Below, in pieces: positions 21,001 to 24,000 of a stretch of 56,879 bases of DNA (within the stretch, counting starts at the first letter, position 1; each line of letters begins with the position of its first letter). A program made the position numbers. Source of the DNA: a virus (lineage: Duplodnaviria > Heunggongvirae > Uroviricota > Caudoviricetes); the IMG/VR virus record IMGVR_UViG_2541047887_000008. One strand, written 5' to 3'.

Positions 21001-24000
21001 CAGACGCAACGCGGGCAGCAGGGCCGCATCGGCACTCTGCGAGGGTGGCAACCACTCTGCCATTTGCCCGCCAAATCCTGCACCGCCCCCGTTGTAGCTG
21101 AGGCTCTCCCGAAGCGGAACGCCGTTCACATCAATCAGGACAGGCGTTCGTTTCATAACCTCACTCCCAGCGGACGACGCCGACGGCGGGTTGTCCCCAG
21201 TACCGACTCCGCATCATTGATCGCCCGGTTAAGCTCATCCAGAGAAGCTGCCGTATATTCAATTCTGCGACCATCTTTCTGGACAGACACCACCCGTTTA
21301 CCGGTTAATAAATCAAGGCGCGCCTGACGCAGCGCCTGCAGTTCAGCGACTGTAACCATTCACTCCTCCGGACAGCTTCGCTGCCAGTTCTTTAAGGGTT
21401 GGCCGGGTCGTCTCTTCTTCCCGGGATTTTGCCAGTACAGCCAGATCAAGCTGCCAGCGTTGCACGGACACACGTAATGCCGCGTAGGCATACACCAGGC
21501 AGTCCAGCGCTTCGTTACGCCGCTTTTTGTTATCCCACAGCAGACGCATCTTTCCTTTTTCCCACTTCTCCACAAGCTCTTCCGCCACCAGTTGCTGCGC
21601 CTCTGTCTGCGAAAAAATCTCCGGATCATCAGGAAAACGGATGGCATACGACGTGGCTTCATCCGCAGGCGTGGGATCGGCTTTCATACGGGCATAGAGA
21701 ATTTCTTTTGCGGTGTCCGTCCCCACTTCGCACAGATACACGCCCCGCTGATTGCGGGTTTTTGGCATGGTGATCACCGGCTTGCCATAAACAGATGCAC
21801 CTTTTACCGGCAGCACCCGGAAAACACCGTGTTTTTTTGACCTCTGATAGACAATTTCGCCATCGATCCCCCCTGTGTCCCAGCAGACACGGGAAATGGT
21901 CATTTCGGTTCCGTCTGCATGGCGGTATTTTTTGTTGATCGCCACATCCACACGTAACAGCGTCTCTTCCTCATCGGGACGCCCCATAATGATGATTTTA
22001 TCCACCAGAAAGGCTTCCTCTCCCGGAGCCCATCCCCAGACATACATCTCAAAACGGTTTCGCTGCGAGTCAATGCCCGCCGTCAGATAAACCACCCGGG
22101 CAGGCACCGCCGCCGTGTAACGCACAACCTTATCCATCAGTACCTGGTGATCGAGTTTTTCGCCCACGGCCTCTTCCCAGGTCTCGCCCAGCGTGGTGTT
22201 CACAAATGTTTTCAGGCCGTTGGGATCTTTCAGTGCATCCAGCCAGTCATAGACAATCTGTACCCAGGTGGTGAACGGACTGTACGCCGTCCAGATATGG
22301 AATGTGATGGAGCGCGGCGGCGGAATTTCATTACCCGCAGCGCTGAAAAACGTCAGGCCGTCACGGGTCCACATGCCCGTGTTTTCACAGATCCACCGCC
22401 CGTTGCTCTGGTCAAGATCAGACTGATGGATCACGCAGCCATGATGTTCACAGAGGTAGAAAACACTTTCTGGACTGTCCTTCTCCCATTTAAGGCCAAA
22501 AGGCGTGGACTCATCGCCAAATTTCAGATACTGCTCCTCCCCGCAGTGTGGGCAGGGCACATAAAAACGCATAAAATGCGCCGACTCGTTGGCCGCTTTT
22601 TCGATCTGGCAGGAACCTTTTATTTTTGGCGTCGAGCCGCGAATGGATTTTGGCCATACCGAGCCCTCAATACGCTTATCCCCCAGCAGGGTTGGCGAGC
22701 CCTCTTTTTCAACATCCGGCTCGAACGAGGAAAGCTCGTCATAGCAGACCACATCCACGGATTTTTCACGGTAGTTTTTTGCTGCCGCACCACCCAGGCA
22801 CCAGAAACCCACACCCGATGAAAAGCGTTTCAGCGTGAGGGTATTATCACGATGTTTACGTCCCAGCCAGGGAGAAAGTTTTTTCAGGCAGGGAACATCG
22901 CGAATCGTCGCCTCCACGTGAGACTTCATAAAATCTTCAGCGGCAGAATCCGTGGGCTGAAAAAGCAGACTGTTTCGGGATTTATGCTCAATAAAATACC
23001 CGGCGACTCCCAGCAACATCTTTGTATAGCCAACACGGGCAGATTTAATCAGATTAACAGTCCGGATCTGATCATTCCCCATGCTGTTCATGATGGCGAT
23101 CTGGAACGGCAGCGTTTTCCATTCTCCCTCACCATATGAAGATTCTTTAGGCAGATAATAATTTTGATCAGCCCATTCAACTGGCGTCACCGGCAATGCC
23201 CTTATCAGGGGCTGTAATGCTGTTGTGACAGCACTCATCATATTATTCAGTTGTTGCTCTGATATATTCATCGAGTAAATCCGGTAATTTATCCCCCGCC
23301 CGCGCACACTGATTTGCCCCCTTCGCAATAAGGGTTTTCAGATGGTCAAGATGGCGCGGTGTTAAATCAGGAAACTGTCGCTGCATGGATAAAGGGATGG
23401 AATCAAGCGTACTGGATAACGCCATTGCCAGCTTGCTGAGGGCAAAAATACAGAACCCGGTGTCAATAAGTTTTCCTTTTGACACCTCATTTTTTAACTG
23501 CTGTGTAACAGCCTGTTCTGCTGTCAGTTCCCATCTGGCAATAAGCAATTTCTCCTCATAGTCGTCTTCGCTATCGCCATCAGGCACATCGTTTTTACTT
23601 CTTCTCAGATACGATATGTAAAAATCGCGCCAGGCATCCAGATCCAGTTGCCCTCGCTTATTCGATATCGGGGCACCCGGCAATTTCTGCAATCTGCGAA
23701 GCTGGCGATCGGTCAGACTTAAATGCCTGGCAACTTCAGTCTGCGTAGCCACTCCTCACCTCGCAAAAACTCTCACCTCACAATCACAACAAAACCGGTC
23801 ATGTCCGGTTTTAGTGTCTATTTTTTGCGCATGTCCGGTTCATGGAAAGCATGTTTTTATATTTTTCATATGGTTAACTTGCAGAGAAACCGGACATGGA
23901 TCCCGGAAAATTTTCATAAATAGTGAAAATCCGCGAGGTCGCCGCCCCGTAACCGGTCGGATCGCCGGAAAGGACCCACGAAATGATAATGATTATCATC

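Follow-up and report, generated by a model that had tools for sequence, protein, structure and literature searches.

The cos region and its terminase genes

The window analysed here is the whole 56,879-nt stretch of the IMG/VR record IMGVR_UViG_2541047887_000008, which belongs to a virus of the Caudoviricetes. It contains a region that is very likely the complete cosQ-cosN-cosB cohesive-end (cos) site of a lambda-like cos phage, in which three short repeats would be the R3, R2 and R1 sites for the adjacent small terminase subunit (TerS). The cos site and the terminase genes are read on the minus strand, the orientation of the phage genes, and positions in bp are counted from the cosN nick. The cosQ heptamer GGGTCCT is found at 23971-23977 (-), where a column-for-column alignment with the lambda-type DLP12 and phage 21 places it upstream of cosN at lambda's spacing. 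GGGTCCT is the packaging-termination signal in lambda. Figure S8 of the study of prophages Sp4 and Sp14 from Escherichia coli O157 Sakai labels the heptamer cosQ in an identical sequence (Asadulghani et al., 2009; PMC2669165). The 12-nt cohesive-end sequence of cosN, GGGCGGCGACCT, lies at 23936-23947 (-) and is identical to that of lambda, as the initial annotation had recognized, and to that of 21. It has a single match across the window, even when one mismatch is allowed. The surrounding bases are also those of lambda (ACG before and CGCGG after), and the cohesive ends are predicted from this sequence.

The lambda likeness had been thought to extend about 45 nt beside cosN, and 43 of the 45 bases at bp 1-45 are indeed identical, the mismatches being at bp 18 and 24. 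This segment, common to lambda and 21, includes an I2-like element, TATGAAAATTTTCCG, at 23904-23918 (-; bp 30-44). Its counterpart is annotated as site I2 for integration host factor (IHF) in the phage 21 record, and the element is labelled "IHF" in Figure S8 of PMC2669165. Homology to lambda stops after bp 45, and the ungapped identity over bp 46-195 is 28%, which is background.

This lambda-unlike segment contains an 11-mer, CATGTCCGGTT, that occurs in three exact copies, all inside 99 bp and none elsewhere in the window. One is inverted relative to the other two, as described initially. The candidate R3 is at 23888-23898 (-; bp 50-60), the R3 position of lambda, 21 and N15; published R3 coordinates are bp 50-65 in lambda and bp 48-60 in N15, and the distance from cosN to R3 is critical (Murialdo and Feiss, PMC9026076). 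The candidate R2 is at 23830-23840 (+; bp 108-118), inverted with respect to R3 and reading AACCGGACATG. The candidate R1, in the orientation of R2, is at 23800-23810 (+; bp 138-148), and an overlapping copy matching at 10 of 11 positions, CATGACCGGTT at 23793-23803 (-), turns it into a near-palindrome. The AT-rich spacer noted between the first two repeats holds an IHF-like site equivalent to I1, TTTCATATGGTTA, at 23864-23876 (+; bp 72-84). In the GenBank record of phage 21, the R boxes are at bp 50-65, 107-122 and 150-165 and I1 at bp 72-86. The repeats of the window lie at the R3, R2 and R1 positions of lambda and 21. Since the repeats and the IHF-like site occupy corresponding positions, the architecture is that of lambda, R3-I1-R2-R1, except for the orientation of R1. 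None of 20,000 dinucleotide shuffles of the 195-nt interval from cosN to terS gave any 11-mer in three copies, and a comparable triple was absent from every other 200-nt stretch of the window.

R1 and its overlapping copy can also be read as a hairpin (23790-23813, -) with a 9-bp stem and a 6-nt loop, followed by TTGTGATTGT. The hairpin stands immediately upstream of terS and appeared terminator-like in a consensus scan. Most E. coli copies of the region retain this palindrome; the satellite described below has lost it.

Immediately downstream of cosB, terS (23243-23752, -) starts with GTG and encodes 169 aa. Its end is overlapped by the start of the large terminase gene terL (21343-23271, -), whose product is a homologue of lambda gpA (66% identity over 639 residues, the whole length). 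Lysis genes are found further upstream of the terminase genes. TerS matches PHROG 57 ("terminase small subunit") over its full length and is without a match in NCBIfam. Pfam Phage_Nu1 (PF07471) matches with 67.9 bits (cut-off 30), but only residues 49-150 against profile positions 62-163, and the N-terminal DNA-binding part of the profile remains unmatched. With tblastn against lambda, 21, phi80, N15 and Gifsy-1, TerS aligned only from about residue 60-73 onwards, at 34-47% identity. The initial annotation had described the N-terminal half of Nu1 as divergent and the C-terminal half as lambda-like. The division holds with other proportions: the part that is unalignable to lambda or 21 comprises about 55 of 169 residues, a third rather than half, and the remainder is related to lambda Nu1 at 46% identity, not nearly identical to it.

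The N-terminal domain alone gave only a sub-threshold Sigma70_r3 match in Pfam, and a profile search of PDB sequences gave no relevant match. A structure model of residues 1-55 (predicted local distance difference test score 87.8) superposes on RppC, on lambda-type TerS DNA-binding domains and on MerR regulators at 1.6-1.8 Å over 49-54 residues. Because the model superposes well while profile comparison with the lambda and 21 domains is weak, the modelled TerS N-terminus is placed in the lambda-TerS fold, as a MerR-like winged helix-turn-helix, but in a separate sequence class. In the register of the hhalign alignment, helix R16-K23 (RQLRRLQK) corresponds to the recognition helix of lambda.

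Conservation of the repeats and co-variation with TerS

Among nine E. coli prophage copies, window included, 2 of 33 site positions within bp 46-160 are variable versus 23 of 82 non-site positions (Fisher p=0.011). R3 is invariant in the eight other aligned copies and in the satellite. A wider comparison used nine loci from E. coli, Klebsiella, Salmonella, Citrobacter, Enterobacter and unassigned sequencing-run assemblies. Here the pairwise identity was 0.88 for R3, 0.89 for R2 and 0.66 for I1, as against 0.30-0.39 for the spacers, and the spacing between the starts of R3 and R2 was exactly 58 bp in all nine. The R sites are conserved islands within otherwise diverged relatives.

Several related loci depart from the window in other ways. 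Six with the same TerS class (L035-L040) have different cohesive ends, chiefly at bp 7-12 (for example, GGGCGACGCGCT and GGGCGGAAACCA). The cohesive end of the Citrobacter-type locus, GGGCGGCGTCCG, is that of N15, which fits the published asymmetry of cosN. A decayed system was found in Escherichia ruysiae (L015, about 1300-1950), with in-frame stops in terS and cosN altered to GGGTGACGACCT; its R sites are degenerate, with CATTTCCGGTT kept at R3 and R2 lost. Partial matches in E. coli, such as H92, span only cosQ to bp 47 and are found upstream of a different small terminase of 182 aa. These were taken as other cosB classes that have the conserved left part in common.

When TerS homologues were aligned, their N-domains fell into three classes, and the C-terminal parts attached to them were similar and in some cases near-identical. 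Class A is that of the window (MATQxEVAxHL...), class B is that of N15 gp1 (LLNKSDMASS...) and class C is that of lambda and 21. The DNA upstream of the class members was then compared. Class A always occurs with TCCGGTT-core sites at the R3 position. In Klebsiella, E. coli, Salmonella, Citrobacter and Enterobacter the core is found at bp 50-62 with an inverted copy 58 bp on, and three sequencing-run assemblies of unknown host have the same pair. Aeromonas phage phiARM81ld, whose record begins at the cohesive end, has a single site, CATTTCCGGTTCCGGTT, at bp 52-68 of the virion end, and its terS follows 27 nt later. The same single-site cos was found in Pseudomonas phage LPPA33 and seven Pseudomonas prophages.

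Class B occurs with GGTTGTTGTTT, present as one copy in N15 and Trabulsiella, as two adjacent overlapping copies at the R3 position in Pluralibacter, and as three copies in lambda's arrangement in Escherichia albertii (L005). In Trabulsiella and Pluralibacter these copies are immediately upstream of terS. Class C goes with the lambda R boxes, as in nohA and nohD of E. coli K-12. The latter genes had been considered as members of the window's class, under the source name "prophage Qin Nu1-like", and were rejected as lambda-type with lambda R boxes. The comparison of class B and mosaic loci covered L005, L007, L016 and L017. Mosaic proteins include P0056, with an N15-type N-domain, and P0063, with a lambda-type N-domain, each on a C-terminal part nearly identical to that of the window. 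The motif class switches with the N-domain class, and it had been suggested from the window alone that the DNA-binding domain of the small terminase varies together with its sites. In these alignments N-domain class and candidate R-site class do co-vary.

A finer correspondence was found within class A. Proteins with Arg at TerS residue 20 (RQLRR) accompany sites with (C/G)ATG before TCCGGTT, and those with Asn, Asp, Thr or Ser at this residue accompany sites with T before the core (TT with Asn, CT with Thr or Ser, and either with Asp). This rule, set down as a prediction beforehand, held for three previously unseen RQ[FL]RN proteins, all of which have CATTTCCGGTT at both R3 and R2, and again for 27 IMG/VR contigs in which residue 20 is always Asn or Asp. 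Wing residue 36 (Leu/Met versus Tyr/Phe) was tried as a second co-varying position and was rejected because a Pseudomonas locus (L009) has Leu-36 with a T-type site.

The reverse search started from the sites. IMG/VR was scanned for AYKTCCGGTT-N47-AACCGGAMRT (R3-N47-R2), which matched at least 120 contigs in a set that is redundant and consists mostly of E. coli prophages. Among the 120 matches listed, a class A terS lies no more than 330 nt away in 107, and one is cut by the contig end; the repeats are thus present in relatives with the same Nu1 variant in 108 of the 120, and the other 12 are satellites with the same cos. An additional 28 IMG/VR contigs, retrieved by a 17-mer scan and having no TerS nearby, were treated as unrelated low-complexity strings resembling (TTCCGG)n. 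In five IMG/VR prophage contigs (helix ...RRLQKLFPHHYG...), terS is disrupted right after codon 24 and the frame shifts past LQKL, which recalls the nu1 of Sakai Sp4, disrupted by an insertion sequence. With an intact cos, these copies would have to rely on a terminase resident in the same cell.

Proposed packaging specificity, a probable satellite and alternative explanations

In the proposed mechanism, the N-terminal winged helix-turn-helix of TerS would bind the three copies of CATGTCCGGTT as the R3, R2 and R1 sites of cosB. IHF would bend the AT-rich I1 spacer, allowing a TerS dimer to bridge the inverted R3/R2 pair. The bridging TerS would then anchor the lambda-like TerL, and packaging would begin when TerL nicks the lambda-identical cosN, at a distance of 50 bp. 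Since the R sequence and the recognition helix are each unlike their counterparts in lambda, 21 and N15, the TerS/cosB pair most likely constitutes a separate packaging specificity, a further one of a well-known kind and one that is common among prophages of E. coli O157. Phage PhiR12_1, whose recorded host is E. coli K-12 MG1655, has a cosN-cosB identical to that of the window. Moreover, Sp4 of O157 Sakai was packaged although its nu1 is disrupted, and the authors credited the terminase of Sp14 acting on an identical cos (PMC2669165).

The 12 satellites among the 120 IMG/VR matches listed form one family of elements of about 10 kb that lack a terminase. Sequences of this family were seen in L042, L053, L054, L055, L062, L063, L070, L081, L096, L099, L104, L116, L138 and L149. 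In E. coli FCI5 (L053; NZ_CM172810.1, about 2985972-2996631) the element is inserted between roxA and phoQ. Its genes encode an integrase, a small helix-turn-helix regulator, a YlcI/YnfO protein, an Icd-like protein, a primase, a single-stranded DNA-binding protein (SSB), a major capsid protein and a decoration protein. The cosN-R3-I1-R2-R1 module (L042:4001-4163) is 95.7% identical to the window over a stretch that starts a little ahead of cosN and reaches slightly past R1, where the homology ends and the 10/11 copy CATGACCGGTT is lost. When a 1.1-kb probe from the satellite was compared with 5,426 E. coli genomes, 55 of them matched it over at least 80% of the probe length. The element looks like a phage satellite that copies the cos of its helper rather than re-targeting TerS. 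As a natural construct, it would delimit the functional module to essentially the interval of the initial annotation, 23793-23947, and the module's occurrence without terS argues against any role that needs a downstream terS.

Seven copies (L055, L062, L070, L081, L096, L099 and L149) contain an extra AACCGGAAGTG about 20 nt after the satellite R1. On the opposite strand it reads CACTTCCGGTT, the form of the site that accompanies TerS proteins with Asp-20. It may open the helpers of a second sub-type to the satellite, or it may be a coincidence.

A more far-reaching proposal combines these observations, and we put it forward tentatively, with doubt slightly outweighing belief. It holds that the pair is a fully orthogonal fourth specificity of lambda-like cos phages, dominant in the prophage pool of enterohaemorrhagic E. 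coli O157; that residue 20 reads the base pair 5' of TCCGGTT (Arg-G; Asn/Asp/Thr/Ser-T); and that the terminase-less satellites of about 10 kb spread by an exact copy of the helper's cosN-R3-I1-R2-R1 and not by Rpp re-targeting.

Several points weigh against the proposed mechanism and its separate specificity, or against parts of them. The binding of TerS to the R sites, the bending by IHF and the orthogonality to other specificities are inferred by analogy with lambda, with co-variation and conservation as indirect support for the binding. The sequence-level relationship of the first 55 residues of TerS to the lambda and 21 N-domains is weak, though in register (hhalign P=8e-4, probability 24%). 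The I1 of the window has two mismatches to the IHF consensus WATCAANNNNTTR; in relatives the site at the same position and strand has none (L033, L034, L038 and L039) or one (L035, L036 and L040). The exact R1 shares the orientation of R2, unlike lambda and 21, where R1 is oriented as R3, and in the complex cosB of the literature R1 is likewise oriented as R3 and opposite to R2 (PMC4669245; PMC9026076). The R2-like orientation recurs in L033 and L037, and the sole copy oriented as R3 is the overlapping 10/11 copy. R1 is present in L033 and L037 and absent in L035, L036 and L038-L040. The co-variation of residue 20 with the adjacent base may reflect few independent events, as the Arg-20 proteins may be one clade, and the redundancy of the IMG/VR set lowers the weight of its counts.

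A last such point is the likeness to phage 21, whose R boxes read (A/T)TC(A/G)TGTCGG and differ from the window's CATGTCCGG by one inserted C, so that some cross-recognition with 21 is conceivable. The repeats might on this basis be a drifted 21-type cosB, with 21-like R boxes recognized by a 21-type terminase and no specificity of their own, and the architecture and the positions of I2 and I1 are common to both. Yet the N-domain of 21 gp1 belongs to the lambda class and cannot be aligned with this TerS, tblastn covering only residues 64-166. Furthermore, matching the motifs requires a shift of 3 bp relative to cosN, and a 3-bp change in the spacing of cosN and cosB is severely defective in lambda (PMC9026076). 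A drifted 21 site is accordingly given very little credence. The motif likeness itself is recorded as unexplained, whether it stems from common ancestry of the sites or from convergence, because of the 3-bp offset and the sequence-unrelated N-domains.

The repeats could instead act as nucleic-acid structure, a 12-bp R3-R2 stem and the R1 hairpin in the late transcript controlling read-through or TerS translation. In the computed RNA fold of the interval, R3 is paired with R2 and the R1 palindrome forms a hairpin (minimum free energy -50.5 kcal/mol, z = -2.75 versus shuffles), the palindrome scores terminator-like, and pairing would survive the G-to-T changes that relatives show in concert at R3 and R2. 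It is nonetheless hard to see why relatives in Aeromonas and Pseudomonas would then keep the core as a single site without an inverted partner, why the site keeps a constant distance from cosN (bp 50-62) and not from terS, or why the motif tracks the N-domain class and residue 20. The satellite, too, keeps the module without a downstream terS and loses an arm of the R1 palindrome. In lambda, too, R2 and R1 form an inverted repeat, and these are established protein sites. A structural role is regarded as highly improbable. Least probable of all is that the repeats serve as operators through which another DNA-binding protein regulates transcription, either a host factor or the product of the divergent DUF3950 (YlcI/YnfO family) gene, which encodes 61 aa at 24154-24339 (+), about 200 bp beyond cosQ, and is transcribed away from cos. 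DUF3950 is a constant neighbour in the E. coli copies and the satellite encodes one too, but it does not co-vary with the repeats, since it also adjoins lambda-type cosB in DLP12 and Qin of K-12. Relatives in other genera that have no DUF3950 beside cos still keep the sites, and no promoter signal above background was found in the region.

Recognition of the repeats by TerS as R3, R2 and R1 remains the preferred explanation, and its reach in E. coli is considerable. Of 5,426 complete E. coli genomes, 1,356 (about 25%) contain the cos region, O157:H7 among them, at a median of two places per positive genome, and the Sakai prophages Sp4 and Sp14 carry the system. In the phage collection, the region was found only in PhiR12 phages, whose recorded hosts are E. 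coli K-12 MG1655 or E. coli C. Packaging specificity sets what a terminase can mobilize among the prophages, satellites and chromosomal segments that reside with it, and once the recognition sites are known, the rescue of a given defective prophage by a given terminase could be explained. The matched variants of TerS helix and site provide a natural series for studies of winged-helix recognition, and the pair is a candidate orthogonal cos/terminase system for cosmid or phagemid engineering. The accepted picture of lambda-like packaging initiation is unchanged; the interest is mainly that the commonness in E. coli, the matched helix and site variants and the cos-copying satellite make the system directly testable.

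Comparison with known packaging systems

Three packaging specificities have been documented experimentally, those of lambda, 21 and N15 (Feiss and co-workers, PMC4669245). The class described here was not found in the literature on cosB and packaging specificity (papers of Feiss and of Penades), and full-text matches to the motifs were all in unrelated primers or constructs. No published description of these repeats was found in a literature that excluded most subscription journals, including two 2015 Virology papers from the Feiss laboratory, nor was any paper on the PhiR12 phages found. The pair of TerS N-domain and R site appears to be uncharacterized so far.

Among the closest published material is that on Sp4 and Sp14, whose TerS N-terminal sequence is that of the window and whose cos agrees with it up to ...CCGGGATCCATGT. 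The study (Asadulghani et al., 2009; PMC2669165) aligns their cos and Nu1 with lambda and marks cosQ, cosN and an IHF site; neither its main text nor its supplementary figure speaks of cosB, of R sites or of a specificity apart from lambda's.

In comparison with lambda, the cosQ heptamer and cosN are identical, R3 lies at about bp 50-60 with an IHF-like site after it, R2 is inverted and placed about 58 bp further along, terS is directly downstream and overlaps terL, and the N-domain is modelled in the same MerR-like winged-helix fold. The differences are in the sites and in the domain predicted to read them. The lambda R boxes are CGTTTCC(T/G)TTCT, as opposed to CATGTCCGGTT, and neither these boxes nor the lambda recognition helix IRTIQNWQE is found in the window. 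The N-domain of the window TerS is also shorter (about 55 versus about 65 aa) and unmatched by Pfam Phage_Nu1. Phage 21 has the same cosQ, cosN and layout, and its core CATGTCGG is one inserted base away from CATGTCCGG. It differs in its lambda-class gp1 N-domain, with the helix PRTIERWQS, in the orientation of R1, and in the placement of C(A/G)TGTCGG at bp 53-60, 111-118 and 154-161, which is offset by 3 bp from the window motif relative to cosN.

N15 and Monarch, with a cosB that is simple or complex, follow the same principle: they too have a swapped TerS N-domain with an R sequence of its own, GGTTGTTGTTT, at about bp 48-60. Moreover, the distant class A relatives in Aeromonas and Pseudomonas have a single-site "simple" cosB, as N15 does (PMC4669245). 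The N15 N-domain, MAVLLNKSDMASS..., is detectably related to that of lambda (hhalign probability 90%), unlike that of the window (24%). The R box and this N-domain occur together in N15 and its relatives in E. albertii, Trabulsiella and Pluralibacter, and neither is present in the window. In the Rpp systems of Gram-negative phage-inducible chromosomal islands, a satellite protein re-targets the TerS of the helper (Fillol-Salom, 2019; Murialdo and Feiss, 2022). Here, it is the phage's own TerS that has the divergent domain, and the satellite appears to copy the cosB of its helper.

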